64,000 nt of DNA from Phoronis australis (lineage: Eukaryota > Animalia > Phoronida): NCBI GenBank assembly GCA_002633005.1, contig NMRA01000425.1, positions 12,883 to 76,882 of the forward strand, in the 5' to 3' direction. Position 1 is the stretch's first letter. Each line of letters begins with the position of its first letter. Of this stretch, positions 3,441-62,947 are shown piece after piece. A model generated the notes under the pieces. The model searched no databases, was not told the DNA's origin, and saw only the letters and a program-made list of their open reading frames with translations. The position numbers and the translations under genes were made by a program.

Positions 3441-3779
3441 GTATGTAAAATGTCTCTAAGAATATGCCCAAATTTGGTAACAAATCAAATTATTTTCAAG
3501 GTCATTATTGCTGAACTGTGATCTGCTAACAGTAAATAGTGAACTGGGTGACGTGTAAATAGTGAAGTGGGTGACGTGTAAAACATTTTTTTTCTTTTAA
3601 AGTGATTAAAAACTTAAGCCTTAAACTGGTTTCATGATACAGGACCGAGAAATCTGTCAGGTTTGCATCAACACCAAGTAGAATAATTGAAATTGTTGTT
3701 CAAAACACTTGCAAGGCAACTATGTGCACACGAACTGGAAACTCACCTACAAAGTTTCATGTCTCACTACTTTTTACAG

Positions 3780-4082
3780 CTGGACGGAATACTTTTCTAT
3801 CACAAACGGACTCATTACCTATTCGGTGTAACCCCCCTTGTACTGTGGCTGAAAGCATACATGGTACCGGAGCTGCTTGGGATCAAAGTTCACAATAAGT
3901 ATATGCAGGATATACCATCAACGTATACATGTTTTGGTGCTCACATTGAACAAGTGAAGCGAGACAAAGAAGAAAATAAAACAGAGAAGACTAGGAGGAA
4001 TCCAAAGGTCAAAAATGGATCTGACAAAATGGACACAACACACACTGATTCAGTTCCTTTTAAAGAAGGCTGGGAGAGCTGA
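3780..4082 (+). CDS. SNUPN: Snurportin-1 last coding exon
   Basis: ttacag acceptor; [34 protein letters not shown] (DG.LFYHK.THY..G.TPLV.WL..YM motif), running to TGA at 4080-4082. Confidence 0.92.
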
Positions 4083-5480: not shown

Positions 5481-6532
5481 CCATATAAAGGAAACGTGCT
5501 ACGTTTATATTTTGCAATTGACCAAGCGTAAGCTCCGCCTCCTTGCGTAATGTCGACTAACAAACAATAAGTTTTACCCGGCAACGTGTAGGCGGCTTGG
5601 AAACGAAGGTGTGTCAATAATGTTGCGTTCTAAATGGCCACTTAAGCCGTCACTCAAAATCCTGACGATTGGTCAATACCAAACAAGGTATTGCATTGGG
5701 TTGCCACTTTAATTCATGCCACAAAATGTCTCGTAACATTTTTAAACCACGTGGCCGCCACTTGCTTGAAGTGAGTCATTTTCAACTTGAGCATAACTTC
5801 CGGAAGAAAAAACAGTAGTAGATTTCTTATTTGAAAAATATTCATTTTTTGTTAGTGGTTGGAATTTTTGTGTCCCAAATTATTTACCCTCAAATAATTG
5901 ATTAACTAATTAACTTCCCTTTTGAATCACCATAAAGGTTTGACTGCCATTATACCCGTCGGTCGACAGTAAAACAAAAAAATAGAAAAATACTCGGACA
6001 TGACCGTGTAATATATGTGCATAATTTACGTCGCAAATCAACACTGGCACTTAAGAGAAGCCGGTGTCTCAAACTGGTAACAGTGTCAAAAATGGAAAGC
6101 ATTGAAGTGGCTCCTAAACACTCAAGTGTGTCATAGAATTACATTCAACTGGAGTCAATCCAGTCAACTTAGACATTTTGGGCACCAATAACGTTTTTAA
6201 AGCCTGCAATGCCCAGTAATGAAAATTGTGGTTGAAAATTGATACAGTATAAGACTTCACGAAGATTGAAAATTCCCTGGATGTTGTTTTTGGGAAATCA
6301 ATAGTATCGTTGATTTTCTCCGTAGAGAGAAACTTACCGGAAATAAAATGTTCATCTAAAATTAACCAATGAAAAATACAACACAATAATTATATTCAAG
6401 CATAAAAATTTATTAACTTTCAAGTTTGAATGGTCGTTTTAACGACCATAGTTAAAAATAGCATCTAAATTTAATCAGTGCTTTTCAATATTCTTAATTG
6501 CATGTAGCTTAAGCCGTGTCATGGGCACCGTG

Positions 6533-6630
6533 CTATTTTGACTTAAGTTCACATATGTAACGTGCTTTGTCGCTACAGCCCTTGATTTCCATGTTCTGGG
6601 TACTGGGATTGAAAACCTCGCATGCTGCAT
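6533..6630 (-). CDS. Copy A exon 3: C-half of C-type lectin fold
   Basis: ctctttcag acceptor, phase 1; (D)AACEVFNPSTQNMEIKGCSDKARYICELKSK* has the terminal C-x7-C/YICE pattern of CTL domains. Not in the ORF track. Confidence 0.72.
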
Positions 6631-7450
6631 CTGAAAGAGACAACAGTCACGTGGTATGAGTAATACAGTAACAGTCAGAAGATAGAGTTGCCCCTTACTT
6701 ACTTGAAAACACCGCAATTCATTGTTAGTGAAAGAAATTTGTTGTTTGAAATGATAAATATAATTAAAGAAACACAATTTTGGTGCGGGCTTAGTATTTT
6801 GTGTTTTGCCTCAAACAAAACTTCGAGTGCAATAGAGTGTCTGTGATTTTTGACCTCAGTGGCACTAATGTTAATTTCATTCAGACAGTTGCATGTACTT
6901 GGCACATGCAGGGAGACAGGTTCCAACTTCTTCGGAAACGATCAAAATCAAATCAGTCGACATACCATTTGACTGGGGTTTGTAGGGTTTATGCGTCCCC
7001 CATTTTTCGTCAGAAATGTGTGATCCCCTTACATCTAAACGCGATCCGGCACCAGTAAAATACGGAACATGAAGTTCATTACAGAATCAATTATTTATAC
7101 GCCAGGTTCTCAAAAACCATAAACGCATGACTGCTATGTAAGTTGATGTACACTTCACGTGTCTCATAAACGAGGATTTTGAACGTGAAGTTAATTCCAC
7201 AACGCAGTGGTAATGTATAGTGAACAATTTAGCAATTTGTAATCAGTACAGAGGGAACTTCTTGTCCAATGACTACACTTAAAAGATACAACTAAACGTA
7301 CATGATCCGTTTATTTAAAAACACAGCTTTATTTTAAATGAACAATACTACTACAGTTTGTTACACAGTGTTCATATTTAAATATTCAGCAACAAGGCCG
7401 ACAATCTATAGGAGTCAAATTTTGAAACGAGGAAAATAGTAAATTCTTAC

Positions 7451-7984
7451 CAACAACGCTCCACACCTCAACGTCGGTCCATTTAATTTCCTTTCCACAG
7501 CCCGCGAGTGTGCCGCTGTAGGTGGATTTACTGCAGTAGCCGTTAGACGGGAAGTACTTGTTGGAGCTGTCATACGAGATGCTACCACTGAAGAACTTCA
7601 GGTCGTAACCCCCGCCAAATGCTGGACCATGCTTGTACTCATCGTACATACCGTACACTTGATATCCGCTCTTCAGGCGGTAACTGGCCGATGTACATCC
7701 TTGTCTACACAGCTGAAACACGAATGTGTTGTTGTCGTACTTGTAAAAATCGACACTTGTCCAGGAGAGAGAGGTATAACCACCGAACGTGGTTCCGCTC
7801 GTTGAATCTTTCCCAATAGAGATGGTTGGGCCCTTGTTGTTGCATCTGCTGTGAAATACTGAAGCGTTCATTCCATCACGTGATGCCCGGTACAGGAGCT
7901 TGAATGTCTTTCCCGGGAACCATTCTCTCAGCAAAGCTGCGTGGGCTTTAGTTAACAGGCTTGAACAAAGAATGGCTCCCATGT
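7451..7984 (-). CDS. Copy A exon 2: TLDc domain
   Basis: LLYRASRDG...FHSRCNNKGPT...FGGYTS.SW...FVF...GPAFGGGYDL...DVEVW motifs. tttcag acceptor and G|GTAAGA donor; 534 nt, phase 1-1. Confidence 0.88.
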
Positions 7985-8394
7985 CTGAAATTCAAACGTA
8001 TCTTAGGTGTATCATTCGTGTTCAGTCCAAAGTGATAGTGCAATTTTCGCTATTGGAATTATATCTTAACAACCAAAATGGTAGTACGCGAAGTATTAGT
8101 TTACACCATTTTTGTGAAATGAACAGCCAAAAACGGTTCCACAATTAAACGTGAAACCTGAGGAGATTATTCCTCAACGAAACGAACGTAAGTAAAAATG
8201 TTACGCTTAAAAACAACAGTTACTTGTCTGAATGAAGCCTAAAATAGCATAGTGTATACAGCTAGTTGAAAGATGATGGGATTTTGAACTAAGCACATGT
8301 GTTAACTAGGTGGCCATGCATCTTCTGGAGTCGAATATTTCTTTAACTAGAATGCTTCTCAAAATTTGACAATGAACGCCATTGGCATTAATAC

Positions 8395-8902
8395 CTTTTC
8401 CCATATCTTTACTTTCAGCCCATATGGTGTCGCCAATTTTCAACGATTCTTGACCAAGGAGAGATCTCAAGCGGTGAGAGTCCATAGAGACTAAATGAGA
8501 ATTATCTTCAAGGCATTTTCGTCTCGCTGTTTCCCAATTCACTGAATCGTTGCTCAGTTTGAAACAGGAATGTCCAAAGTAACGATATTGACTCGGGCAG
8601 TATTGTTTACATAGATTGCGTTCGAGTGAAGACGACGACATTTCGCGCTGGAGTATAACTTCCTGAAGTAATTCGGTAGCATATGGAAAAGTATTAAGGA
8701 AGTTTTCAAGTTCCGTGTGAAAATGATTCACGATTTTTAGAACGGCCGATTGGAAATTCCGATTGTTTTTTTCTTCCTCTTTCAGTAAAGAGATGACGGA
8801 GTCTTCGATAACACATCCCTTCTCCACAGGCGAAGCCGCTTGGAGACACGTGACTTCATGACACAGCACAACGATCGTAAGTAGGAGATTAGCTCTGGAC
8901 AT
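8395..8902 (-). CDS. CTL/TLDc gene copy A exon 1: signal peptide, one coiled-coil unit, N-half of C-type lectin fold
   Basis: MSRANLLLTIVVLCHEVTCLQA hydrophobic leader; YCPSQYRYFGHSCFKLSNDSVNWETARRKCLEDNSHLVS...IWAESKDMGK; AAG|GTATTA phase-1 donor. Length 508 nt = 3n+1. Confidence 0.75.
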
Positions 8903-9699: not shown

Positions 9700-11258
9700 T
9701 TACTACGCAAGCCAACACCTGCGTGTGATTACCAAATGCCACCTGACTAGAACGACGTCTTTCGTGGAAATGCAATTGTTGGAAGTGTATAAACTGCATG
9801 CTTATGAAATGGACAATATTACAAAGAAGACTACGGATAGCCATAAAATGAGTAAAGTTTAAAACACCATAATTTGTTAAATTGATAAGAATCAACCAAG
9901 AAAAAGTTATTATTAGTTTAATTAATTCAAATTGTTATGGACTTTCAACATGGCGGCTTGTCCTGAGACGTGTTTGTGAACACTGCTGTCATTTTATCCT
10001 CGAAGCCTGTATTGAAAAACCAAACATTGAAAGTACCCCAGCTGTATCAAGCAAAAGTGCACCTGCAGCAACCAACGCAAGCAATAGAGGGCGCCGTACA
10101 TAGAGGAGTCAGTCTAGTGAGAAGTTTAAAGTTGCCATTATTAGATATATGCGCTAGGAAGATGTTTAAAGATTTTCTGGATGAATTAAAAGGTTCGTAA
10201 AATCTTCAATACCCTCAAGCTCAAGTTTCACAAAGATTCAACGTGTCCAGCAAGAACTAGTCCCTCAGAAACAAGCAGATGAATCACTGGAGAAAGAGCT
10301 TGACCACTTGGTTCAGTACCATCGGCGAAATTCTTTCGTGGTAAGCAGTATCCCTGAAACAGGTGACATTATTTTAGCACGTGCTAGTACGAAGGGATCC
10401 AATGTTACCCAGGCAATCAAGGTACTAACAAGGAGTGGACATCATGGCAAAATTTACGAATTATTAGCCTATGCTCATGCCAACTTTATATTATTCTGCC
10501 ATAGAACGCGAAAAACAAGACTAAGTTGCATTCTCATGATGCCAAAGCACTTTCGTATGGAGGCCCATTAATTAGTGCCAGGAAAGGTAAAACTGGAATC
10601 TGCTAATGTATAATACCGATTGTCAATCTTTTAATACAGATTGGCAATCTGTCGTACGGATTGGCAATATGTTAATACGGATTGCCAATATGTTAATACG
10701 GATTGCCAATATGTTAATACGGATTGTTGATCCGTTAATACAGATTGTCAATCTGTTGTTTTGAATTGTCAATCTGGAAATTACGGCAATCTGTTGGTAA
10801 GAAATGGTAATCAATTGGCTACGACCAGTGGCTCATACAGGAAGCATGGAACTGGAAGTGCCGTCAATCGACATCTGAAAAATTTGTTGAACTAGTCCGG
10901 AATTTGACTACTGAGCACTGCACGATGCTTTAGGGACTAAGTCGGTATTCGTACCACATTTTTATACCAGGATCTAATACGTATGCTGTGTCCTGCATCC
11001 CAGTACTAATAGAACGTGTATGCATTTTCTCCAAACTGCTTCCTAGGGGGAGCTTTTGGACATGGACGTGCGTCCAAGGTTGTAACAACAATGAAAAGGT
11101 AGACGAAGAAGTAACACAGCAAACTACATTATGTGCCTGCCACACATATCATTGCCATTTAGTTCGAGTAAAATTGAAATTTGAGAACACAAAAATTTAA
11201 TGCATTTTCACTACGATTTATGAAGATTTCATACTAGTCATCACTGGAAGGGGTTCTT
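9700..11258. repeat. Near-identical duplicated block 1 (second copy 15767-17279)
   Basis: Direct sequence match and duplicated ORFs in the track (9882/15949, 10308/16375). The second copy begins right after an N at 15766. Contains a LINE ORF1-like remnant (ELDHLVQYHRRNS..VSSIPE). Confidence 0.92.
10615..10790. repeat. 21-bp minisatellite (acggattgccaatatgttaat)
   Basis: Tandem units are visible; the duplicate at about 16675-16810 has two fewer units. Confidence 0.85.
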
Positions 11259-15742: not shown

Positions 15743-18700
15743 AAATATCCCATATCCTGGTGTTGNTTACTACGCAAGCCAACACCTGCGTGTGATTACC
15801 AAATGCCACCTGACTAGAACGACGTCTTTCGTGGAAATGCAATTAGAGTTGAAAATGTATAAACTGCATGCTTATGAAATGGACAATATTACAAAGACTA
15901 CGGATAGCCATAAAATGAGTAAAGTTTAAAACACCATAATTTGTTAAATTGATAAGAATCAACCAAGAAAAAGTTATCATTAGTTTAATTAATTCAAATT
16001 GTTATGGACTTTCAACATGGCGGCTTGTCCTGAGACGTGTTTGTGAACACTGCTGTCATTTTATCCTCGAAGCCTGTATTGAAAAACCAAACATTGAAAA
16101 TACCCCAGCTGTATCGAGCAAAAGTGCACCTGCAACAACCAACGCAAGCAATAGAAGGCGCCGTACATAGAGGAGTCAGTCTAGTGAGAAGTTTAAAGTT
16201 GCCATTATTAGATATATGCGCTAGGAAGATGTTTAAAGATTTTCTGGATGAATTAAAAGGTTCGTGAAATCTTCAATACCCTCAAGCTCAAGTTTCACAA
16301 AGATTCAACGTGTCTAGCAAAAACTAGTCCCTCAGAAACAAGCAGATGAATCACTGGAGAAAGAGCTTGACCACTTGGTTCAGTACCATCGGCGAAATTC
16401 TTTGGTGGTAAGCAGTATCCCTGAAACAGGTGACATTATTTTAGCACGTGCTAGTACGAAGGGATCCAATGTTACCCAAGCAATCAAGGTACTAACAAGG
16501 AGTGGACATCATAGCAAAATTTACGAATTATTAGCCTATGCTCATGCCAACTTTATATTATTCTGCCATAGAACGCGAAAAACAAGACTAAGTTGCATTC
16601 TCATGATGCCAAAGCACTTTCGTATGGAGGCCCATTAGTGCCAGGAAAGGTAAAACTGGAATCTGCTAATGTATAATACCGATTGTCAATCTTTTAATAC
16701 AGATTGGCAATCTGTCGTACGGATTGGCAATCTGTTAATACGGATTGTTGATCCGTTAATACGGATTGTCAATCTGTTGTTTTGAATTGTCAATCTGGAA
16801 ATTACGGCAATCTGTTGGTAAGAAATGGTAATCAATTGGCTACGACCAGTGGCTCATACAGGAAGCACGGTACTGAAAGTGCCGTCAATCGACATCTGAG
16901 AAATTTGTTGAACTAGTCCGGAATTTGACTACTGAGCACTGCACGAGGCTTTAAGGGACTAAGTCGGTATTCGTACCGCATTTTTATACCAGGATCTATA
17001 CGTATGCTGTGTCCTGCCTCCCAGTACTAATAGAACGTGTATGCATTTTCTCCAAACTGCTTCCTAGGGGGAGCTTTTGGACATGGACGTGCGTCCAAGA
17101 TTGTAACAACAATGAAAAGGTAGACGAAGAAGTAACACAGCAAACTACATTATGTGCCTGCCACACATATCATTGCCATTTAGTTCGAGTAAAATTGAAA
17201 TTTGAGAACACAAAAATTTAATGCATTTTCACTACGATTTATGAAGATTTCATTCTAGTCATCACTGGAAGGGGTTCTTCATAATCATTTCCAAGTTAGA
17301 TGCACCATAATTTTCACTCTAAACGCCTGATCTAATTTTTTTCTCTTTCGGATATAATTGTGAGGATTTTTACACACTTGTAGGGAAAAGAAAAACGAAA
17401 GACAAAATATTGCCTATGCGTCATAACTTGACACACGTGCTCTTTTAAAGGGGGTGAAAGCCACCATACATTTCTCCGTCCCCGGATCTGACCTTAAATT
17501 TTAGTATTCTTAACAACGGAGTGTCACAGAAGACCATCGTGTGTGCTTGGAGTATTTGCACTGCCCTAAAAAATGATGGAGGCGTCCTCTTGTAAAAACA
17601 TCATTACTTGCAAAGCATTCTAATACAAAACTAAAAAGGGCGTTACTTGCATGGGATACCAACAAATGATACTTGTATGCATGCAGCAATGTGCACGCCG
17701 ATTGGGAAATAATGAAATGAGAAAAAACTCACAATTAATTGAGATTGAAAAAGATCATCAAAAACTACTTGAAATTGAAAGTGTTTCTTTTTCCTAAATT
17801 CAATCGGTGCTATTGAATTTTAATTCAAAGTGACGGAGGATCCTCCCTTTGGATTTGAGCTTTTAAGAGGGTGTCTAACTCTTTTCGAAGGTAGGTGTAT
17901 GATCTTGAAATTAAGCTAACATCATCCCTAAAACATTTGAAGTCCAACATTATCGATTGAACAGTATTCGTGAAAGCTGACACCTGAATAAGATTGTGCG
18001 TCTAGACTGGGTTGCATCAAACTTCAAAACGCCGGATAATTTTTTACATGACTTCAGATAAATTGTTTAACAATGACAACATGACACGTGATGGCGTGAT
18101 GCCATTGGCTACTTCTTATATACAACGGGTCCAGAATGTGGTACATAGCCAGATTGATCGGTGCTGAAACAGAGGAAGTGAGAGGTCTATGTCACTCTGG
18201 GTGATTATGGGGAATGATTGACAGCTAGCATCAGCAGTCAAAAATGGACTGAACCACCGGATGAGGGCTGCAGTTTTCTGTGGTCATTTTTTGTTCTAAG
18301 AAAGATTTATTTTTTTCTGATTGAATTTTGGCAAACTCTGTGTTGGACACTAAATTACTTGAATATATTCGCCTAAATGAACTAAAAGGTTTGTTAGATT
18401 TTTATTGACAATTACATTTAGGAGATGGACGATGAATACACTTTTAAATACGGAATCTGTGCTATAGATGATGCTGATGGACTCTGTAGTTGACATTTTG
18501 CGTCTTTGTAGACTACTGTTATTTGCTTATCTGCATCCGTGGGCAAAAGACATTTCATTAGGAGCAACTGGTGAAATGTGTGATAGTGTGCAAAACTGCT
18601 GCTTTTGAAGAGTCTGAGGACAAGGTTGACGGAATGATGCGTATTTAAGATACGTGAGCAAAGACATAAGTTGTCCTATTTTTCCATGAGGTGGTGATGT

Positions 18701-24260: not shown

Positions 24261-25116
24261 TGATTTTGACCGCAGTGAGAGATTTTCCCGGAATAGAATG
24301 TTCAGCTTCTAAATTTAACCAATGAAAAATTCATCACAAGAATTATATTCACGCAGAAAACTTAAATATATTTAAGTTTTCAAATGTGAATGGTATTTAA
24401 CAGCACATAAATTTCTTGCTTTTTAATTCTTAATTGCGTGTAGTTTAAGCCGTGTCGTGGGCGCCGTATTATTCTCACTGATGTTCACAGATGTAACGTG
24501 CTTTGTCGCTGCATTCCTTGCTTTGCAGGTTCTGTGTACTGGGATTGAAAACCTCGCATGCCGCATCTGAAAAAGTGGCAACAATCACGTGGTACATGTA
24601 TGAGTAATACAGTAACAATGAGAAGTTTGAGTTGCCGATTACTTACATGTACTTGAATGCACCACAACTCTTGGTGTTGGTGNNNNNNNNNNNNTGATTT
24701 TGACCGCAGTGAGAGATTTTCCCGGAATAAAATGTTCAGCTTCTAAATTTAACCAATGAAAAATTCATCACAAGAATTATATTCACGCAGAAAACTTAAA
24801 TATATTTAAGTTTTCAAATGTGAATGGTATTTAACAGCACATAAATTTCTTGCTTTTTAATTCTTAATTGCGTGTAGTTTAAGCCGTGTCGTGGGTGCCG
24901 TATTATTCTCACTGATTTTCACAGATGTAACGTGCTTTGTCGCTGCATTCCTTGCTTTGCAGGTTCTGTGTACTGGGATTGAAAACCTCGCATGCCGCAT
25001 CTGAAAAAGTGGCAACAATCACGTGGTACATGTATGAGTAATACAGTAACAGTCAGAAGTTTGAGTTGCCGATTAGTTACATGTACTTGAATGCACCACA
25101 ACTCTTGGTGTTGGTG
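24261..25116. repeat. 422-bp direct duplication around an N gap, including copy B exon 3
   Basis: 24261-24682 and 24695-25116 are near-identical and separated by 12 Ns. Confidence 0.9.
24909..25000 (-). CDS. Copy B exon 3: CTL C-half (duplicate at 24475-24566)
   Basis: tttttcag acceptor; (D)AACEVFNPSTQNLQSKECSDKARYICENQ*. Confidence 0.72.
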
Positions 25117-25838
25117 AAAGAAATTTGTTGCTTGACCTTGACATATATTTTAAATAATAAATAACATTCTGAGTACAACAGAGTGTATGTGATCGTTTGC
25201 CCGAGCGGCACTAATACAAATTTCGTTCAGACAGATAGTTGGCATATTTAGGGAGACAAGGTCTCGCCTCTTAGGAAACGACCGAAACAAATGCAGCCGA
25301 TATGTCACTTGAACGAGATTTGTAGGGGCTACGCAAACATGTGACTTCAGAAAATAGTAATTCGTCCCCCATTTTTCCTCAGAAATGTGTGACCCCCCTT
25401 ACATCTAACTTTAATCCGCCTGTAAAATACAAATCATGAAATTTAATTTATAATCAGCAACTAATTTGCTTGGTTCTCCAAAATTAAGCAAGCTGAACCG
25501 CATGATCACGTGACTCATAAACGAGGAGTTTTTCTTTATTTTAATTTAGAACGTGAAGTTAATTTGACAACACAGTGGTATTGTATAGTGAGTCAGCTAG
25601 CAATATGTGAATGAATTTCTTGTCGAACGCCTACACTTAAAAGATACAAATTAAATTGCATACTTATTCTGTTTATTTAAAAACGCAGCTTTTAAAAAAC
25701 GTCATTGCTACAGTTTGTTTGTTGCACGTGTTACCAATAATTATGTTGAAAAAGATTATTATTACTAAATACCTATCTACAAAGCGGAAAATTCATAGGA
25801 GGCAACTTTTGAAAGGAGGACAAAAGGTAAATTCTTAC

Positions 25839-26366
25839 CAACAACATTCCACACCTCAACATCGGTCCATTTAACATTGCGTCCACAGCCGAGTTCTCCA
25901 TTGTAGGTAGATTTACTGCATCTGCCGTTAGACGGGAAATACTTGTTGCTACTGTCATACGAGTGGCTACCATAGAAGAACAACAGGTCGATACCTCCGC
26001 CAAAGAATGGGCCATGTTTGTAATGATCGCGCAGGGCGTTTTCTCGAAACCAGTACTGGCTGTACCTGACTGATGTGCATCCTTGTCTGCACAGCCGAAA
26101 CACGAAAGCGTTGCTGTCCTTCTTGTAGTCGTTGACACTTGCCCAGGAGACAGAGGCATAACCACCGAAAGTGGTTCCGCTCGTTGAATCTTTCCCAATA
26201 GAGATGGTTGGGCCCTTATTGTTGCATCTGCTGTGAAATACTGAAGGCTTCATACCGTCACGTGTTGCCCGGTACAGGAGCTTGAATGTCTTTCCCGGGA
26301 ACCATTCTCTCAGTAAAGCTACGTGGTCTGTAGTCAATAAGTTTGAACTAAGAATGGCTCCCATGC
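25839..26366 (-). CDS. Copy B exon 2: TLDc domain
   Basis: Open TLDc frame; ttttag acceptor and G|GTAAGA donor; 528 nt, phase 1-1. Confidence 0.88.
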
Positions 26367-26755
26367 CTAAAATTCAAGAGTATCATACAAACACGGAGTT
26401 TCATCCATGTTTTCAAGGTGACAGCGCAGTTTTGGCTAATGGAATTATAACATTAAAAATGGCAGAAACCAAAATGTTAGTTTACGATTTTGTCACATGA
26501 ACAGCAAAAAATGAGTCACAATTAATGAAACGTGAAACCTGGGTAGTTTATTCATGAATGAATCCAAGGTAAAAGAATACTGGTAAAAACTACAGACTGT
26601 TAACACTTACTTGTCTGAAGCTTAAAGTAAGATAGTGCTATCATGTAAGATGATGGGATTTTGAAATAAGCACAACTAAGGATCATGCAACTTATAGAGT
26701 GGAATAAACTAAATCGCTTCTGAAAATTGGCATTTAACGCCATTGACATTAATAC

Positions 26756-27545
26756 CTTTTCCCGTATCTTTCCCACCAGCCCATATGATGTCGTCTGTTT
26801 TCAACGATTCTTGACCAAGGAGAGATCTCAAGCCATGAGAATCCATTGAAACTACGTGAGAATTGTCTTCAAGGCATTTTCTTATCGCGGTTTCCCAATC
26901 CACTGATGTGTTGCTCAGTTTGAAACACGAATGTCCAAAGTAACGATATTGACTTGAGCAGTACAATTTGCTTAAAATGCGTTCAAAGGAGATCGATGAC
27001 ATTTCTCGTTGACTTATCACTTCCTGTTGTAACTCGGTAGCATTAAATGAAATGGACTTTCGTAGTTTCTTGTGAGAGCGATTCATAGTTCTTAAAATCG
27101 TTGAATGAAATTCCCGATTTTTACGTCCTTCTTCAATGCTTTTGTTTTGCATTCCTTCAAGCTTCGTTTGAAAGTGAGTTATGCTTTTTAGAACAGCCGC
27201 CTGAAAAATTCGGTCCTTAAGTCTTTCTGCGTTGCTACTGTTTCGCATTTCTTCAAGCTCTGTTTGAAAGCAACCCAATGCTTTTAGAATGGTCGATTGA
27301 AAATCCTGGTTCTTAAGTTGCTCTTCGTTGCTACTGTTTCGCATTTCTTCATGCTTAGGTTGAAAGTGAGTTACGTTCTTTCGAACAGTCGATTGAAAAT
27401 CCCGGTTGCTTTTTTCTTCGTTTTCCAGCAAAGAGATGACAGAATCTTCGGCAACAGACCTCTTCGTGGCAGCCGAAATCGCCTGGAGGGATGCAACTAC
27501 ATGGCACAGCACAACGATGACTACCAGGAGATTAGCGTAGAACAT
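26756..27545 (-). CDS. CTL/TLDc gene copy B exon 1: signal peptide, four coiled-coil units, CTL N-half
   Basis: MFYANLLVVIVVLCHVVASLQA; four FQS/FQA/FHS repeat units; YCSSQYRYFGHSCFKLS..VDWETAIRKC..IIWAGGKDTGK; AAG|GTATTA donor. Length 790 nt = 3n+1. Confidence 0.75.
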
Positions 27546-30484
27546 TTCTGATCATAGATTTATCGACATAGACGTGCACAGTTAAACCGTTTTCCAACAA
27601 CAAATAGCAACAAATGTCCTGACTTGTAGAGCGTTTCTCAAGGTTGTGAATGTGACGTAGACATAACATTTCTTGATAAGGTGAACGTTGATACTAAAGT
27701 GAAATGTTTTTCTTGTGTGAGAAACACTGAGATTAGATAAGTCCATGAATATGGTCAATAGTTTATGTGCAAGATACAGCGAAACGCATACACGTACGTA
27801 CATGTACGTTGACACGCATACCAACAAACCACTGAGAGTAATCCCTGATGTTTTGCATAAAAGTCCTCATGTTTTTAAATAAGCGATCTCAGTGTACTGG
27901 GAGGGAAAATTTTTAAAGCGTTCCTACAGTGAATTTTTGCACTTTTTGAGGTTCTAGACCGTGTATGAAATTAACTTTATAGTTTATGGGTATTGAACCT
28001 AGTGTTAATTTCAACTGTTACGTAATTGATGGAAATTATGAAATTAACCTTACTGTATTATTCACCCAGAACGATATTAGAATTCACGAGGGACTTTTGT
28101 TAACTTATAGTGACTGGTCGTATTGCATTAGGAGCACCAGCTGCCACCTGGTGGTGTTAAGATGTACTTCCAGTTCAAAGTGGTAAACAGAAGGACCTGT
28201 AAACAGATTATTCGCTTGTTTAGTATGACGTTATTTTTGAAGATTTTGACCCGGTCAAATAAAACTAAGATGCAAAAATTTAAAAACTAGAATAATAATT
28301 AAGCCACACTTATGTATCGCTGTATATTTGTGAGGTCTTGGAAAATTATTACCCCATTAATTATGGACTTGCTCTTTCTCAACTCTTCGGGAGCATACAG
28401 TAAGTGCAAGAGTTGTTGTTTCAATCCAAAAACACAATTGTGTTAGCAATTCATGTGTTTCCAAGACCTGCAAAAACTTTGAAAACATGATGTGACTGAG
28501 TAGTTCTATTACTATTTGTGGGTCCACGGCTCCTTGATAGCAGCTTATACGTCATCACTAAACACCCGAATAACATTTTGTTGGATGATGAGCGTTCTTA
28601 TTTTATGTTACAGCATCACGGGGAAACAGAATGCAGTAAACGTCGCGTAAGCCGGTTCAACCAGAACGAGATATGTCATGTCAGATCATCTACCAATGTC
28701 ATGATGTACCACTGAGCGTCTCTGCTGACTAGTGAAATATGCAACTACAATGTAGTTTTTGTTTGTTTTACTCCAATTAACGACTCACATGCTCTGTTGT
28801 GCCCTGCTTTCTCGAGCCAATCGCCCTCATTGTCGGGTTAGGTCGGGTTAAACCCTATCCCATTTGTACTCTAGCTCATTGTTCATGTCGAACTCGTTTT
28901 CAAGATCTTGCCTGAACTTTTCAAACGCAACGATTGGTGACAAGTAAAAGACACCAAGTTTAAAGACTTGCGTATATCATAAGCATACTTCTCTATCGTG
29001 CCATCTATTTTAAGAGTATCTGTCAAAACAGTGCGCCAGAATGTACAAGAACCATGCCATCTATGGAATCGCTTGATGATCATTTAATTGCAATAAAGCA
29101 AATCAGTCAGAGTTGTCAATATGTATCTCTACACTAGACTAATGCCAAGTTTAAGCTGCTGTGAAGCCTGTGTTCTATCCATGAAACAAGCTAATAATTC
29201 GTAACTGTTAACTCTCAGTTCTAGGAAAGCCTTGAAATCACGTCCAGTTTAACAAAAGAAATTCTTAGACCTAGTTCTAAAACTGTAAGTTCACAAAGTA
29301 AAAAATTGATTTTTGTAACTGAAGGCGAGTGTTTTGAATTTTTGAAAACCGGTTATCGTCTGTTTTACAGTTGCCGGTTGGCGCTGGGTTTGGGTAACTC
29401 GAGGGCTGTGGGGAAAACATCCGTTCAACCGCGAATTGTAAAATCCAGTTAGTTACGCAATGAGGCTAATCAAACACTTAACTTCTGGTGGTGTCACTAA
29501 AACAAACAATTTAATTCAGTAAAAGTGAATACTTTCAGACCTCTGTAGAACTTTATTTTGACATTAAACCAACCTGCCAGTAATTAGATCACATGACATC
29601 GTTTTAGGAAAAGATAGAACAAATAGAAGGCACATCCACAGCACACGGTCTGATCTCCATTCTTTGGTTATCAGAGTTGAAGGTGAGACAGGAATCTGAA
29701 AGTTAATTTATGTAAAATAGTAACCTCTAATGGTATAATATTATTATACAGTTATTGCAATTACTCAAATCATTCACCAACTTAACACGTCATGTATTTT
29801 GGCATTTTACATCGCATTTCGTCAGCTAAAATGACCTTAACGTAAATTTTTCAAAACCCATATCATTCGCAAAATCACTAGTTGTAGTCGACAATATATC
29901 AATACATTTTTGCCATTGCCTCATTGAAATGAAGCCATCGCTAACGCGGTAATTACTCTACTATACACATCGGACCTTACATCTGTTTCCTTATTAAACG
30001 GACCTCTTGGGAACAGATCGAACGACCAAGTACAAGATGCCGTGAAAAGGGCCTCCTGGCAATCAATGCGGGAAGTGTAGATATCTACTGGTGAAGTTCA
30101 ACATGCCTTGAAACTGGTGGAGTTTTTAATGAAAGGAAGAGTGCCGGTACTAATAAGAACAATGATGACAATGAGAATTATGATAATAGTGTGGTATAAC
30201 ACAAGAATGCACACAAAATGCCATCGTCATCTTTAATTGAGAAACAACCGGTTCTTTGTTGGTAAAACACGATCACGTAAAACACGTACTGAGATGACGG
30301 AAATTTCCAACACGTCCGTAATTCACTAGAGGCAGTAAAAGTGTCTAACACCCTACCTCAAAAATGGTGGATTTGATTGAGATGAAATTTTCGGATACAC
30401 TACTTGATGTAGTGATTTCCAAAGGTGTGTTAAATGTTATCTTAAATGGTTTCATTTTTCACATGAACAGCCAAAAATGGAGTC

Positions 30485-31460
30485 GATAACATTTTGCCAT
30501 TTCTGGACGTGTTAGTAGAGCGTGAGGGTACCTCAGTGATAACATCAGTATTTCATAAGAAGACTTACACAGGACTGTACACTTGTTTTCATAGCTTCAC
30601 ATCCTTTGTTTATAAAGTAGGTCTCATAAAGACGCTAATAGACAGGGTATATCGCATTAACAACACTTGGGCTAGATTTGATTCTAATATCAAAGAACTT
30701 ACAACGAATTTGCAAAAGAATGGCTATCCCCTAGAATTAGTCAATAGGGTACTGAAAGCAAGACTCCAACGTAACCCTGATGATGTTCATCCTGTAGACA
30801 AAACTAACTACAAGTACTTTAAAATACCCTATGTTGGGTTTTACGCCAAAATTGCTCAACGAAAACTCAACAAATTGGTGAATGATTACTGTGTGAACTT
30901 AAGAGTTGTATTAACATTCAAGTCTCTAAAACTGTCGAGTTTATTTAACCCTAAGGACAAAATTTCTATGGGTCTACGGTCCAAGGTTGTATACAAATTT
31001 ATCTGTGCTGGATGTGGCTCCAGTTATATAGGCGAAACTGTTCGCCATTTGAAAACCAGGACCAAGGAACATCTAAATTCTGACAGTAATTCACATGTAA
31101 ATATTCACCTGCAGAGCTCCAATCATTGTTATCAGCAGTGCTCTTTCAATGACTTTGCAATAATAGACCAGGCAGTAACAACAAAGGAGCTTAAAATTCG
31201 TGAGGCTTTACATATCAGTTGGTGCAAGCCCAATCTCAATAGGCAACTGACACACCACAGGTTGTCATTGTTGGTATAGTTCATTGTCACTCCCTGTAAC
31301 TGACTGTATCTGTGCTTCATTACTTGTTGCTGGGCCTAGCTAGGTGGCCACTGTATTATGACTTCTGAGGATGGTGTTTAATAAATGACACCGAAACATG
31401 TCAAGTTTTAAATCCGTTGTTGTTTTCGTGAACATATGCTGTTACTTGCTATCATGGAGA
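30485..31460 (+). mobile_element. 5'-truncated Penelope-like element (RT thumb plus GIY-YIG) inserted in intron 1 of copy C
   Basis: ORF 30494-31279: LPFLDVLV..TSVFHKKTYTGLY...NGYP...PYVG...VVYKFICAGCGSSYIGETVRHLKTRTKEH...EALHI...PNLN. Both flanks match the family's intron 1. Confidence 0.9.
31360..31407 (+). ncRNA. Minimal type I hammerhead ribozyme motif in the Penelope 3' region
   Basis: actt-CTGAGGA-t-GGTGT(loop)ACACC-GAAA-catg-TC-aagt gives stem I actt/aagt, stem II GGTGT/ACACC, palindromic helix III CATG and a UC cleavage site. Confidence 0.7.
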
Positions 31461-31464
31461 AGTC

Positions 31465-31872
31465 ACTTAAAACCTAAGTAGTTTATTCATCAACAGAGCG
31501 AACATAACCGAAAATACCGCAGGTAAAAACAACATACAGCTAACACTTACTTAATATAGTGTATACAGTTAATATTTGTTCTAAAATGATGGGATTCTGA
31601 AATACGCACAAGCGTTAACTTGGTGATCATAAATCGTATAGAGTGAAAGATTTCTTTACCCAAGATGCTCCTGAAAAACACTTGCATTTCTTCAAGATCA
31701 TGGTTTTTAAAACAGTCGATTGGAAAATCCGGTTGCTTTTTTCATTCTCGTTCAGTAAAGAGATGACAGATTCTTCGAAAACAGATCTCTTCGCCGCAGC
31801 CGACGTTGCTTGGAGAGATGCGACTTCATGACACAGCCCAACGATGACTACTAGGAGATTAGAGTTGAACAT
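31465..31872 (-). pseudogene. CTL/TLDc family copy C (internally deleted exon 1; TLDc and exon 3 absent)
   Basis: MFNSNLLVVIVGLCHEVASLQATSAAAKRSVFEESVISLL..., then jumps straight into intron-1-homologous sequence; interrupted by the Penelope element. Confidence 0.8.
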
Positions 31873-48845: not shown

Positions 48846-48931
48846 TCAAAGTTCACAGATGTAGCGACCTACATCAGTACACGGTCTCCCCTCCATTGTT
48901 TGGTTACCAGGATTGAAAGCGAGGCAGGGAT
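48846..48931 (-). CDS. Copy D exon 3: CTL C-half (divergent)
   Basis: ctcttttcag acceptor, phase 1; (D)PCLAFNPGNQTMEGRPCTDVGRYICEL*. All three Cys, FNP and RYICE are kept despite heavy divergence. Confidence 0.72.
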
Positions 48932-50121
48932 CTGAAAAGAGAACGAAACACAGTAACACTCTGTGGATATAGGGTCATACAATAACTATTTAGAATATCG
49001 AATTTCCGATATGAAATAAAAAGAGTAAACTTGCTCATACTCATCCATTCACTATGTGGCTATGGATAATTAAGTCGGGCATTCTTAAAAATTATTCATA
49101 TTTATACATACATTTTATTGAACCTTTGGTGCCGTTTCAGACAATTGCGTTCTTCAGTGAAAATTAGGAGTGCAGTGACATTTACGAAAAATGAGATAAA
49201 CCACTCCAAGTATATATCCGAAATTTGCAGATAAAGGTTTTCTGATAAGTAAAAATTTGAATTGTACTCCGAAGAATACAGTGCGTTGTCAAAAACACAA
49301 AATGCTGGATTGGGTTCTATTACAGAGTAAACGTTTCCTTTGTTAAATTTCATTTCAGGGGTACTACAGATAATCATTAATCGAATAAACAATTACGACA
49401 TCTATGCGACACGTAAATATTGCACAAATGAATTATTATAAAACAATTGAAAACAGCAATAACACACACACAGAAACACACACTCTTAGCTAAGCAATTA
49501 TGAGCAATCGAAAGTTACGAAAATACAATTATTTTAATCCTTCTTAATGAATTTTTCATTGAGGTTAACTGTAACACAATATAAACACCCAAAAAATGTC
49601 TTCTTGAAAAACGTCTGGCATGCGGGTAGGTTATGGAAACTGGTTCTAAGACTGAAGCTGAAAAGATATCAAACCCCAAACTACAATATACCTCGGTATC
49701 TACCAAGGTTCACAAGTCGGTGATTGTAAAGAATGACTAGCGTAATTGTCGGGTTTGTTAACTAATTTTGCAGTGAAATTCTTGGTTGTATGGAACTGTA
49801 CCTTAAGAGTCTCTATTGATGAACAATAATAACAAAATTAAAATGAACCAATGAAATTATGTTTGATTTGATAACTACAACTCGATCAAAACACAAATTC
49901 GCAGCGCAAACGCTCGCGGCTAATATCGGAGGCACAAGTTGTAATATCTGAATACATAGCTCACGTACGGCAGTTGGCATTCCAGGGCTAGATATGGACA
50001 TAAGTACAGTGTAATGTCAAAAAGCATTTTTTCCACTTGCGTGTTTATGTATATGACAAACTCGCTTATTGCTCCTCTTTATACTCATGAAGAACTTTTA
50101 CGTTAAAAGTCTAATACATAC

Positions 50122-50655
50122 CAGCTACTTTCCACACCTCAACGTCAGTCCATTTAACGTTGCTTCCACAGTAGAAATGACCGTCGTAGGTGGTTTTACC
50201 GGACAAGCAGCAGCCGTTAGACGGGAAGTACTTGTTGGAGCTGTCATACGAGTAGCTACCAGAGAAGAACAACAAGGAGTGATCCAGACCAAAAGATGGA
50301 CCATAGTTGTTCTTGTCGTACAGAGCGTATTCGTAATACCAGAACGGGACGTACTTGACTGTTGTGCATCCTTGTCTACACAGCCGAAATATGAATGCGT
50401 TGTTGTCGGGCTTGTACATATTGGCACTTGTCCAGGAGACAGAGGCATACCCACCGAACGTGGTTCCACTCGTTGAATCTTTCCCAATAGACATGGTTGG
50501 GCCTTTATTGTTGCATCTTCTGTGAAATACTGAAGCGTTCATTCCGTCACGTGATGCTCGGTACAGAAGCTTGAATCCCTTTCCTGGGAACCATTGTCTC
50601 AGCAAAGCTACATGGTCTGTAGTCAAGAGGTTTGAACTGAGAATGCCCTCCCTGT
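50122..50655 (-). CDS. Copy D exon 2: TLDc domain
   Basis: ttttag acceptor, then AC AGG GAG with no ATG at the exon start, so it behaves as an internal exon. G|GTATGT donor; 534 nt. Confidence 0.88.
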
Positions 50656-51067
50656 CTAAAATTCAAACATATGCAGTCAAAGTGTGTCATCCATATTTTC
50701 ACACAGAGCACTGCGATTGTCGCTGTTGGAATCATAACCAAACAACACAAAGGCGGTACCTACGATATTAGTTTACACACAGCCAAAGAATCGGTCACAA
50801 CGAAACGTAAAACCTGAGTAGTTTATTCATTAACTTATCAAACGTAACTGAAAATGCCGCTAGAAAAACAACAGACTGTTAACACTTACTTGTACGAACA
50901 AATAAATTAAGTAAAGGTATTCAGTTAATCTATGCTAAAGGTGATGAGATTTCAAAATAATCACAAGTGTAAGGTGGTCATGGATCTTTCAGACAGACAG
51001 ACAGACAGGTTTGTTCACCTAAAATGCTATTGAAAAATTGACATTTCCCGCTATTGGCATTTAATAC

Positions 51068-51770
51068 CTTTTCCCGTCTCTTTTCCATCAGCCCATATGA
51101 TGTCGCCTTTTTTAAAAGATTCTTGACCAAGGAGAGACCTCAAACGATGAGAGTCCATAGAGACTATGTGAGAATTCTCTTCTAGACATTTTCTCCGTGC
51201 AGTTTCCCAATCCACTGATACGTTGCTCAGTTTAAAACACGAATGTCCAAAGTAACGATATTGGCTTGGGCAGTACAGTTTACTTAGAATGCGTTCGAAG
51301 GAGGACGATGACATTTCTTGTTGACGTATCACTTCCTGTAGTAACTCGGTTATATTAAGTGAAAACTCATTGTGAAGGTCTTTAATCTCCGTGTGAAAGC
51401 GATTCGTGATTCTTAGAATCGTCGACTTAAAATCCCAGTTCTTAAGACTTTCTTCACCGCTTTTGTTTCGCATTCCTTCAAGCTCCGTTTGAATCCGCGT
51501 CACGGTTTTCAGAATGGTCGATTGAAAATCCCGGTTCTTCAGTTTTTCTTCAATGCTATTGTTTCGCATTTCTTCAAGATTCGTTTGAAAGCGAGTCATG
51601 GTTTTCAGAACAGTCGATTGGAAATTTCGGTTGTTTTTTTCTTCCTGTTTCAGTAAAGAGATGACGGATTCTTCGAGAACAGATCTCTTTACGACAGAAG
51701 AAACCTTCTGGAGAAACGCGACTTGATGACACAGCACAACGATGCCTACTAGGAGGTTAGCGTTGAACAT
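51068..51770 (-). CDS. CTL/TLDc gene copy D exon 1: signal peptide, three coiled-coil units, CTL N-half
   Basis: MFNANLLVGIVVLCHQVAFL; YCPSQYRYFGHSCFKLSNVSVDWETARRKC...IIWADGKETGK; AAG|GTATTA donor. Length 703 nt = 3n+1. Confidence 0.75.
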
Positions 51771-53603: not shown

Positions 53604-55105
53604 TCACCTGAGTGGCACTATTGTAAATTTTATTCTGGCACTTACTTGATATATTAGGACGACCTCAGGGAGGCAGGGTCCTTCAGAAACGACCAAAAAG
53701 AAACGCGGTCGACATGCAATCATGCAATTTGTAGATATTAAGCGAACATTTTCCTCCAGAAAATTGTGATTAGCCCCCATTTTTTCGTCAGAAAAGTGTG
53801 ATCTCATTTCATCTAACCTTGATCCGCCGGCATGGAATATCAAGTTTCATAAAGATTCAGTAATTAATTTACCCGCTTCTCAAAAACTGAAACACGATTG
53901 CATTGCTGTCGTACTTGTAACTCCCGACACTTGTCCAGGAGACAGAGGCATAACCACCGAACGTGGTTCCACTCGTTGAATCTTTCCCAATAGAGATGGT
54001 TGCACCCTTATCGTTGCATCGGCCGTGAAATACTGAAGCGTTCATACTGTCACGTGATGCCCGGTACAGGAGCTTGAATGTCCTTTCCGGGAACATGGTC
54101 TGTAGTTAATAGGCTTGAACTAAGAATGGCTCCCATGTTTAAAATTTGAACATATTATACAAAGAAGGTGTCTCATCCATGTGTCCGGGCTGACAGTGCT
54201 ATTGTCGCTCTTAGACTAGTTATAGCCAAACAACAAAAATGGCAGTACCCGAAAAAGAGTTTAAACGATTTTCGTAACACGAACAGCCCAAAATGGGGTC
54301 ACAGTGAAACGTGAAATCTGAGTAGTTTATTCAACAAATCTGGTGTAACTGAAAATATTATTGATAAAACAACAGACATTTAACACTTACTTAATCTAGT
54401 TTATCTATGTTGTGATATGATGGGATTCTGAAAGCACGATTGTGACTAGGTCGTCATGAATCTTACACAGTGAAATATTTCTTCACCTAAAATGCTATTG
54501 AAAAAGACATTTAACGCCAATTGGGATTAATGCCTTTTGCCGAACCTTTTCCATCAGCCCATATGGTGTCACCTTTTTTCAACGGTTCTTGACCAAGGAG
54601 GGATCGCAAACGACTGGAGACCGTAGAATCTACGTGAATTGTTTTCAAGGCGATTCCTTTTCGCGGTTTCCCAATCTACTGAAACGTTGCTAAGTCTGAA
54701 ACACCAATGTTCAAAGTAACGATATTGACTTAGGCAGTAAAGTTTGCGATGACATTTCTCGTTGGCGTGTCACTTCCTTGAGTAACTCGGTAGCATTAGG
54801 TGAAAAGACATTGCGTAATTCCGTGTGAAAGCGATTCTGGTTTTAAGAACCGTTGAATGAAAATCCCGGTTCTTCCGTCGTTCTTCACCGCTTTTGTTTC
54901 GCATTTCTTCAAGCTTTGTTTGAAAGAGAGTTAAGGTTTTCAGAACAGTCCACTGGAAAGTGCAGTTGTTTTTTTCTTCCTCTCTCAGTATAGAGATGAC
55001 GTATTGTTCAAGAACAGATCTCTTTGCGACAGCCGAAGTCGCTTGGAGAGACGCAACGTCATGACACAGCACAACGATGACTATTAGAAGATTAGTGTTG
55101 AACAT
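53604..55105 (-). pseudogene. CTL/TLDc family copy E
   Basis: Exon 1 has two coiled-coil units and is frameshifted; the donor is GC. The TLDc acceptor AG has become AA, there is a 20-nt deletion, and the TLDc is truncated at about 53870. Exon 3 is missing. Confidence 0.85.
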
Positions 55106-62059: not shown

Positions 62060-62947
62060 CAGCCCAAGCAACTTGGACTTTGCGGGCACCGATTACGCTT
62101 TTGAAGCTGTAATGGGTAGAAATGAAAATTGCAGTTGTAAATTTATACAATAATGTTTTTGATAAGATTTCACAAAGGTTGAAAATTCATTGAATGCTGT
62201 TTTGGGGGGAATCAATGGTACCGTCGATTTTGACAGTAGTGAAAGATTTTCCAGGAATAGAATGTTCAGCTTCAAAAATTAACCAATAAAATGACAAAAC
62301 ATGAATTGTATTCAAGCAGAAGTTTATTTAAGTTTTCACATTTGAATGATCTTTAATAGTACATAAATTTCGTTAGTGTTTTTTTCAACTTTTAATTGCG
62401 TGCAGTTTAAGCCATGTCTTGGGCACCGTTTTATTTCGACTGAAAGTTCACAGATGTAACGTGCTTTGTCGTTGCATCTCTTGGTTTGCAGGTTCTGGGT
62501 ACTGGGATTGACAATCACGGATGCGCTTTCATTTGAAAAAGAGGCAAAATCCACATGCTTGAGTAATACAATAACACTCAGAAGTTTTAATTGCCGATTA
62601 CTTACCTGAAATTACTTCAACTCTTGGTGTTGGGGAAAGAAATTTGTTGTTTGACATTAAAATATATTTAAAATCACAAAATTTTGGTTCTGGAGTAGTA
62701 TTTGTTTTGCCTCGAACAACGTTCTAAGTGCATTAGAGTACCGGTAGGCTATCTGTGATTATTTGCCTGAGTAGCAGTAATGTAAATTTTGTCCAGACAG
62801 TTAATTGACATATTTAAGGAGAAAGGGTTCCACTTCTTCGGAAATGATCAAAACAAAACCAGCGGACCTGCCGTTTCACTGAGATTTGTTGTTGTTACGC
62901 GATCATCTACATTTACAAAATTGTGATTCGTCCCCCATTTTTTGTCA
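62060..62947 (-). pseudogene. CTL/TLDc family copy F (intron 2 and exon 3 only within this window)
   Basis: NESASVIVNPSTQNLQTKRCNDKARYICEL; acceptor AG>AA and first Cys lost; cut at about 62948 by a transposon fragment. Confidence 0.7.

Follow-up and report, generated by a model that had tools for sequence, protein, structure and literature searches.

A tandem gene family of Phoronis australis predicted to carry a TLDc domain in place of the long loop of a C-type lectin-like domain

Gene structure and transcription of copy A

The window analyzed here is a stretch of 64,000 nucleotides from the phoronid Phoronis australis (contig NMRA01000425.1, positions 12,883 to 76,882). It is eukaryotic DNA with about 39% G+C and 15 N, and all positions given below are those of the window. 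A tandem gene family is encoded on its minus strand, with three intact copies (A, B, and D) and three copies which are decayed (C, E, and F). We describe this family with copy A as the main subject. [quoted passage not shown] The coordinates of the exons and of the other copies are listed in Table 1.

The minus-strand segments 8902-8395, 7984-7451, and 6630-6533 of copy A join to 1140 nt, corresponding to 379 codons and a stop, and the frame is devoid of internal stops. Both introns are in phase 1 and have GT-AG boundaries (donors AAAAG/GTATTA and GTTG/GTAAGA, acceptors TTTCAG/AC and TTTCAG/AT, with the slash marking the boundary). The start codon was picked by homology with copies B and D. 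A stop-free protein of 379 aa, joined at phase-1 GT-AG sites, had been proposed by an earlier reading made from the DNA letters alone (hereafter the sequence-only reading). The frame was recomputed and holds, and all of the C-type lectin motifs that had been listed were located in the translation (YCPSQYRYFGHSCF, WETARRKC, HLVS, TIWA, CEVFNPSTQNMEIKGC-x7-C, and YICE). Copies B (469 aa) and D (440 aa) likewise have open frames when joined at homologous canonical sites, as the sequence-only reading had stated.

Transcripts support this gene model. A contig of 1191 nt from RNA run X5 covers 6395-6630, 7451-7984, and 8395-8776 with the introns absent. It opens with a T run, which represents a poly(A) tail, and this one contig spans all three exons of copy A. 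The assignment of X5 as an RNA run is a guess; the contig is spliced and polyadenylated, and the reads from true RNA runs agree with it. In the raw RNA-seq reads of runs X6 and X7, the joint 6630/7451 is crossed by 7 and 10 reads and the joint 7984/8395 by 1 and 2 reads, respectively. Both junctions expected for copy A (8395/7984 and 7451/6630) are therefore seen in raw reads as well as in the X5 contig. The transcripts of copy A use the donors and acceptors that had been proposed, rather than other donors at which exon 1 would end before the TLDc domain, and the three exons do occur together on one polyadenylated contig. The poly(A) site is located 14 nt beyond an AATAAA signal (Table 1).

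The X5 transcript differs from the window at 2 positions over 382 nt in exon 1. In exon 2, the differences affect 12 codons in a nonsynonymous and 4 codons in a synonymous manner, and 9 of the 12 nonsynonymous ones fall within residues 248-296. The frame is kept, including across a 3-nt insertion. The X5 transcript is an allele or a very close paralogue of copy A.

A second transcript type arises from an alternative exon within intron 2, which has two donors that are spliced to exon 3. The joint 6630/6966 was found in 47 and 43 reads and the joint 6630/6855 in 7 and 10 reads; the molecule ends near 7117. Upon translation, no ATG-initiated frame of the alternative exon continues into the reading frame of exon 3, and this RNA is thus probably a non-coding transcript from an internal start. 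Skipping of exon 2 would keep the frame, and no 6630/8395 joint is present among the listed joints.

Reads of the opposite orientation carry plus-strand GT..AG joints between 7771 and 8785, namely 7771/8417 (4 and 1 reads) and 8472/8785 (6 reads). A weakly expressed, spliced antisense transcript covers exons 1 and 2 of copy A.

The TLDc domain encoded by exon 2

Exon 2 of copy A matches the Pfam domain TLD (PF07534) at an E-value of 1e-26 and with 94.3 bits (cut-off 24.5 bits), over positions 5-169 of 170. An AlphaFold2 (AF2) model of the exon has a predicted local distance difference test score (pLDDT) of 78 and a predicted template modeling score (pTM) of 0.82. A Foldseek search with this model returned 16 PDB matches at E<=0.001, and all 14 of the matches listed are TLDc structures. 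The query-based TM-scores (TMq) to TLDc structures are 0.62-0.76, with 0.76 reached for 4acj and 7obp; zebrafish OXR2, NCOA7, mEAK-7, Skywalker, Oxr1p, and Rtc5p are among the PDB matches. As judged from sequence and modeled fold, exon 2 is a TLDc domain. The sequence identity to solved TLDc domains is 16-21%. The nearest sequence relatives (30-47%) are undescribed TLDc proteins from protists, sponges, rotifers, and a coral, in which the domain is linked to BTB, EGF, or fn3 domains.

The TLDc fold is described as two N-terminal helices and a beta sandwich of ten strands, with strands beta-1 and beta-10 in the same sheet (PMC8329711). The latter arrangement is compatible with both chain ends leaving the domain on one side, without showing it.

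All aligned TLDc domains have one invariant cysteine and several invariant glycines. Copies A, B, and D share four additional cysteines (in LCRQGC and the pair C320/C332) that the aligned TLDc relatives lack; this fits an oxidizing, extracellular setting. The loop SYDSSNKYFPSNG (exon 2 residues 133-147) is identical in A, B, and D and is the sole part of the TLDc model with a pLDDT below 50. Cysteines specific to the family flank this loop, which may have a function peculiar to the family.

A C-type lectin-like domain probably interrupted at its long loop

The C-terminal part of exon 1 codes for the N-terminal half of a CTLD, which comprises beta0-beta1-alpha1-alpha2-beta2 and is recognizable from its sequence. 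When exon 1 was compared to the PDB by phmmer, all 60 of the listed matches were CTLD chains, aligned to residues ~93-166. The best matches were PLA2R (1.1e-8) and LOX-1 (6.6e-5), and NKG2D was also matched. A profile of the N-half from copies A, B, and D was searched against 1.84 billion representatives and gave 161 matches at E<=0.001. Because none of these reached E<=1e-30, the N-half has no close relative in this set. Pfam Lectin_C was present in all 36 of the short N-half matches that were scanned. The named relatives are animal proteins, including a protein from a crinoid, mannose-receptor-like proteins from mantis shrimps (crustaceans), CD209-like proteins from teleosts, and a CLEC4M-like protein from an oyster. 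The WIGL motif is degenerate in copy A (TIWA).

A CTLD profile with 133 positions was generated from the 32 complete CTLDs among the exon 1 matches. Exon 1 corresponds to positions 2-71 of this profile (58 bits). Exon 3 of copies A, B, and D scores 12.0, 15.2, and 9.1 bits, respectively, and aligns from position 101, 103, or 104 to position 127 or 129. The highest score among 3000 shuffles was 10.1 bits; none of the shuffles reached the exon 3 score of A or B, and one reached that of D. When 1610 six-frame peptides from the window were compared to the profile, the best matches to its end were the exon-3 copies, each downstream of a TLDc exon. Only four PDB matches were obtained with exon 3, all of them C-terminal ends of CD94/KLRD1, at E-values (0.22-0.83) which are not significant alone.

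The proteins from copies A, B, and D were freed from their TLDc domain and compared by hhalign with the CTLD alignment. The alignment has a probability of 99.5% (E 3.8e-22) and extends from column 4 to column 132 of 135. Its one deletion corresponds to the long loop, the usual location of EPN. The expectation that the TLDc-excised protein would match a lectin profile was thus borne out from end to end, with a single gap at the long loop. Profile positions 72-100, which represent the long loop with EPN, are absent from exons 1 and 3, and WND is replaced in the three copies by MEI, LQS, or MEG. This agrees with the sequence-only reading, according to which the TLDc domain stands in place of the long loop, and EPN, QPD, and WND are all missing. 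The long loop is described as connecting strands beta-2 and beta-3 and as bearing calcium sites I-III; EPN belongs to the loop and WND to beta-4 (PMC7618208). Canonical calcium-dependent sugar binding is excluded, because the long loop with EPN/QPD and also WND are lost.

A hidden middle exon coding for the long loop was considered and rejected. No six-frame peptide from the window matches profile positions 72-100, and the best candidate (52395-52111, 6.5 bits, E 0.78) lies between genes.

All six canonical cysteines of a long-form CTLD (pairs C0-C0', C1-C4, and C2-C3) are retained in copies A, B, and D. In copy A these are C102, C113, C130, C351, C366, and C374, and B and D have counterparts of each. 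The expected partner of C1, which is encoded in exon 1, is C4, which is encoded in exon 3. Based on these alignments, a complete TLDc domain sits at the long-loop place of the CTLD in copy A. The two CTLD halves would together form a single double-loop fold that surrounds the base of the TLDc domain. The family protein can be assigned as a CTLD by its fold signature and not as a calcium-dependent lectin.

N-terminus, neck, and sequence variability

The family proteins start with 4-5 residues, followed by a short hydrophobic stretch. This N-terminus is predicted to be a cleaved signal peptide, with the protein being secreted. The subsequent neck consists of 32-aa repeats, most of which contain an N-glycosylation sequon, and their number is one in copy A, four in copy B, and three in copy D. 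The heptad periodicity of the neck was compared to shuffled sequences, and the observed value was reached by 3 of 300 shuffles for A and by none of 300 each for B and D. The neck may adopt a coiled-coil form similar to that of collectins or DC-SIGN.

The ratio of nonsynonymous to synonymous substitutions (dN/dS) among copies A, B, and D is below 1 in every part of the protein, at dS values of 0.3-0.8. It is 0.15-0.20 for the CTLD N-half, 0.18-0.22 for the N- and C-halves together, and 0.46-0.76 for the TLDc domain. Within the family protein, constraint is strongest on the CTLD parts. The differences between A, B, and D concentrate in residues 271-300 (copy A numbering). This distribution suggests a variable face on the TLDc domain.

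The gene family and its genomic neighborhood

The introns and flanks are 65-76% alike among the copies, as expected for segmental duplicates. The junction reads anticipated by the sequence-only reading were found at both junctions of copy A, but no joints were found for copy D (51068/50655 and 50122/48931). Pseudogene E is also devoid of joints, and copies D and E draw only stray reads which continue unlike the window.

Two sets of RNA reads (135 and 96 reads) match a conserved part of the TLDc exon, with loose ends at 7752 and 53926, and then diverge from the window into one shared consensus. There is at least one more strongly expressed family member outside the window.

Table 1. Coordinates of copy A and of the other members of the gene family in the window.
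Feature	Position	Strand	Description
Copy A exon 1, coding	8395..8902	-	ATG at 8902; open frame and donor site
Copy A exon 1, N-terminal parts			predicted signal peptide, residues 1-~22; putative helical neck with one 32-aa repeat, residues ~23-96
Copy A CTLD N-half	8396..8614	-	residues 97-169; C0, C0', C1, and TIWA (WIGL-type) strand
Copy A exon 2	7451..7984	-	symmetric, phase 1-1; encodes the whole TLDc domain and nothing else
Copy A alternative exon in intron 2	6855..7117	-	two donors (6966 and 6855) that join exon 3
Copy A exon 3, coding, with stop	6533..6630	-	CTLD C-terminal strands beta3-beta5 with C2, C3, and C4 (CEVFNP...C-x7-C, YICE)
Copy A 3' untranslated region	6395..6532	-	AATAAA at 6414-6409; poly(A) site near 6395
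Copy B, intact	24909..27545	-	469 aa; neck with four repeats of 32 aa; exons 27545-26756, 26366-25839, and 25000-24909
Copy C, fragments only	29607..31872	-	first 58 codons at 31872-31699; degenerate exon-3-like piece at 29693-29607
Copy D, intact	48846..51770	-	440 aa; three neck repeats; exons 51770-51068, 50655-50122, and 48931-48846
Copy E, pseudogene	53872..55105	-	in-frame stop, frameshift, C1 lost; TLDc ends after ~80 residues (tblastn)
Copy F, lone degenerate exon-3-like piece	62444..62530	-	devoid of the acceptor AG and of C2

The last exon of copy B is present twice, at 25022-24918 and 24588-24484. The two versions are 434 bases apart and differ by one residue, and an N run (24683-24694) is located between them. 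This doubling (24478-25022) is probably an assembly duplication at the gap. Upstream of copy A, a stretch of 200 bases (9700-9900) recurs at a distance of 6 kb (15767-15967) with 96% identity, beside a single N, and is either a repeat or an artefact of the assembly.

Mobile elements are interspersed within the family array. An open plus-strand frame of 748 aa (57577-59823) with reverse transcriptase and zf-RVT domains represents a non-LTR retrotransposon and is located between family copies. A DDE_Tnp_4 transposase fragment is encoded at 42645-42992, also on the plus strand. The plus-strand frames 1827-2138 and 3687-4082 match the m3G-cap-binding domain of snurportin-1 (profile positions 66-103 and 134-178) and are exons of a neighboring housekeeping gene.

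Relationship to known proteins

As in collectins and in lectins of CD209 (DC-SIGN)/CLEC4M type, the CTLD of the family proteins is of the long form, in which a C0-C0' hairpin accompanies the cysteines C1-C4 and C2-C3. The family proteins also resemble these lectins in their putatively helical neck of tandem repeats, which precedes the CTLD and has a repeat number that varies between paralogues. The necks of DC-SIGN consist of 23-residue repeats and tetramerise. The family differs from the CD209/CLEC4M type by having a predicted signal peptide where the latter have a type II anchor, and by the replacement of the long loop with EPN/QPD by a TLDc domain of 178 residues, with WND being lost. The best single-domain sequence matches are to the CTLDs of natural killer (NK) receptor type (CD94, NKG2D, LOX-1), and the motif of calcium site II is absent on both sides. 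The C..YNP....C....RYIC ending of CD94/KLRD1 is as in exon 3. However, the NK-receptor CTLDs retain a long loop of normal length, while another domain replaces it in the family described here.

On the TLDc side, OXR1/OXR2, NCOA7, TBC1D24/Skywalker, mEAK-7, and the yeast proteins Oxr1p and Rtc5p have the same domain according to Pfam and fold. In the family protein, unlike in these known proteins, the TLDc domain is internal to another domain, is located behind a predicted signal peptide, and has the four extra conserved cysteines. According to the sequence-only reading, known TLDc proteins are intracellular. This is in line with their description as cytosolic partners of the vacuolar-type ATPase (V-ATPase) in the sources consulted (PMC8608904, PMC9263379, PMC11066047). 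However, undescribed EGF-TLDc, fn3-TLDc, and membrane-anchored multi-TLDc proteins exist in the databases, and an extracellular TLDc domain is thus probably not unique to this family. One such case is P0170, a protein of 1057 aa from a JGI metagenome, which has three extracellular-looking TLDc domains and, further on, a membrane span and a tail. The third TLDc domain is immediately followed, at residues 692-723, by a sequence that resembles a CTLD C-terminus (DCVRI...W...C.....YICE; profile positions 99-127, 11 bits). P0170 does not have the same architecture, as it is devoid of a CTLD N-half, is membrane-anchored, and has several TLDc domains, but it gives a second hint of an extracellular association between TLDc and CTLD pieces.

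Two protein libraries and two contig collections, as well as the ESM Atlas, yielded no second eukaryotic example of a CTLD with a nested TLDc domain, in searches which all have their limits. A search with exon 1 among longer proteins gave 971 candidates, none at E<=0.01, and none of the 19 protein matches to exon 2 has Lectin_C. When 128 TLDc proteins (from these 19 and the 120 listed of 206 TLDc-profile matches) were compared to the CTLD profile, none had CTLD halves around the TLDc domain, and none of the 150 best relatives of the CTLD halves has a TLDc domain. Seven TLDc loci were detected in genome contigs, all on small contigs and without CTLD matches, and no relative was found in the metagenome contigs that were scanned. 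All 30 named matches in the ESM Atlas belong to plain TLD clusters. The listings and abstracts obtained in literature searches describe neither a combination of TLDc with a C-type lectin nor an extracellular TLDc domain, which is consistent, at that level, with the sequence-only reading, to which no description of the architecture was known. Copy A represents a real, expressed, new domain architecture made from known domains.

Interpretation and alternative explanations

We consider it slightly better than an even bet (a probability of about 0.55) that copy A is a transcribed gene for a secreted, neck-assembled protein with a TLDc domain at the long loop of its CTLD, and that this TLDc domain, rather than a calcium-sugar site, is the binding head. 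A symmetric exon of phase 1-1 is a classical signature of exon shuffling, and insertion of the TLDc exon into a CTLD gene by this process is the likely origin of the architecture. The hydrophobic N-terminus would be cleaved, leading to secretion, and the putative helical neck would assemble the protein into an oligomer. The CTLD core would then act as a disulfide-locked pedestal, and the TLDc domain, which replaces the calcium-sugar loop, as a ligand-binding head, with its variable stretch (copy A residues ~268-300) as putative contact surface. The family may serve in non-self recognition, because its tandem array containing decayed copies, together with the variation in neck length and in the head, is the pattern of invertebrate recognition lectins. 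Behind a signal peptide, the TLDc domain would not meet the cytosolic V1 sector of the V-ATPase. A wider generalization, which we put forward tentatively and consider rather doubtful, is that the CTLD with nested TLDc domain is a recurrent recognition module. A fast-changing TLDc face on a lectin pedestal would bind an extracellular ligand, and TLDc would be a general binding fold, with V-ATPase regulation being one of its uses.

Several observations weigh against the favored interpretation. Helices and a coiled coil are not supported by structure prediction, because the AF2 model of copy B exon 1 has a pLDDT of 35.9. On its own, neither exon 1 nor exon 3 attains E<=1 with the Lectin_C model of Pfam. 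Exon 3 has modest scores (9-15 bits), and the N-half contributes most of the score for the nested arrangement; the profile score of the N-half is biased because the profile proteins were chosen for their likeness to exon 1. The full-length message of copy A is rare, with three reads over the exon 1/2 junction in two RNA runs, and the transcript with the alternative exon is more common than the coding exon 2/3 junction (47 and 43 versus 7 and 10 reads). For copy D, the runs examined contain no RNA joints and provide almost no depth. As three paralogues and one variant only are compared, the pattern of variability is not a test of positive selection, and the 12:4 ratio of nonsynonymous to synonymous differences in X5 is close to the neutral expectation.

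The modest lectin scores might indicate that the CTLD is broken rather than interrupted, in which case the halves would not form one fold and the protein would work as a neck plus TLDc domain with vestigial lectin remnants. Neither piece alone is scored by Pfam Lectin_C, exon 3 is found at 9-15 bits only, and decayed exon-3 copies do exist (C and F). However, the retention of all six canonical cysteines in A, B, and D, including the C1 to C4 pair across the insertion, the strong constraint on the CTLD parts (dN/dS 0.18-0.22 for both halves), and the end-to-end alignment of the excised sequence to the CTLD profile make a broken domain improbable. Another view accepts the nested fold but regards the TLDc domain as an enzyme or a redox-protective module, acting extracellularly or in a lumen, with the CTLD core and neck responsible for targeting. 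We judge this to be unlikely, even though the sources consulted tie TLDc proteins to oxidation resistance (PMC8329711, PMC10540402), one cysteine and several glycines are invariant in all aligned TLDc domains, and the loop SYDSSNKYFPSNG does not vary between A, B, and D. A catalytic activity of TLDc is not established in the sources consulted, which describe V-ATPase binding instead (PMC8608904, PMC9263379). Moreover, with the canonical ligand site of the CTLD gone there is no obvious targeting surface left, and the variability is found in the TLDc domain and not in the CTLD.

The remaining alternatives concern the N-terminus and the state of the locus. An uncleaved signal anchor would turn the protein into a type II membrane receptor, as for its CD209-like and CLEC4M-like relatives, which are among the nearest named CTLD proteins, and the best 19-residue window of copy B has a mean hydropathy of 2.48. 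Yet only 4-5 residues precede the hydrophobic stretch, which in copy A is interrupted by His-Glu after 9 residues and attains 1.7 in a 19-residue window; we attribute a low probability to a membrane anchor. It is very improbable that the family is decaying, with the full-length message representing splicing noise from a locus that mainly yields a short non-coding RNA. Such a view could draw on the excess of the alternative-exon transcript over the coding junctions, on three of the six copies in the window being broken or fragmentary, and on the silence of copy D in the runs examined, but these are few samples. Copies A, B, and D keep 379-469 codons open over three exons at dS values of 0.3-0.8, with dN/dS below 1 throughout, and the X5 variant holds the frame despite its 3-nt insertion.

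Implications for TLDc and lectin biology

To our knowledge, TLDc domains have been studied only as cytosolic V-ATPase partners, and their biochemical activity is still debated. A TLDc domain behind a predicted signal peptide, on a neck of repeats, and at the ligand site of a lectin points to ligand binding as a function of this domain. The expressed family described here is a system in which ligand binding by TLDc can be tested. The long loop is regarded as the evolvable part of the CTLD (PMC7618208). With its clean phase 1-1 exon, copy A would be a clear case of a domain into the middle of which an exon was shuffled. We know of no earlier case in which the long loop of a CTLD has been swapped for a whole foreign domain, and for lectin biology this would be the first known exchange of that kind.

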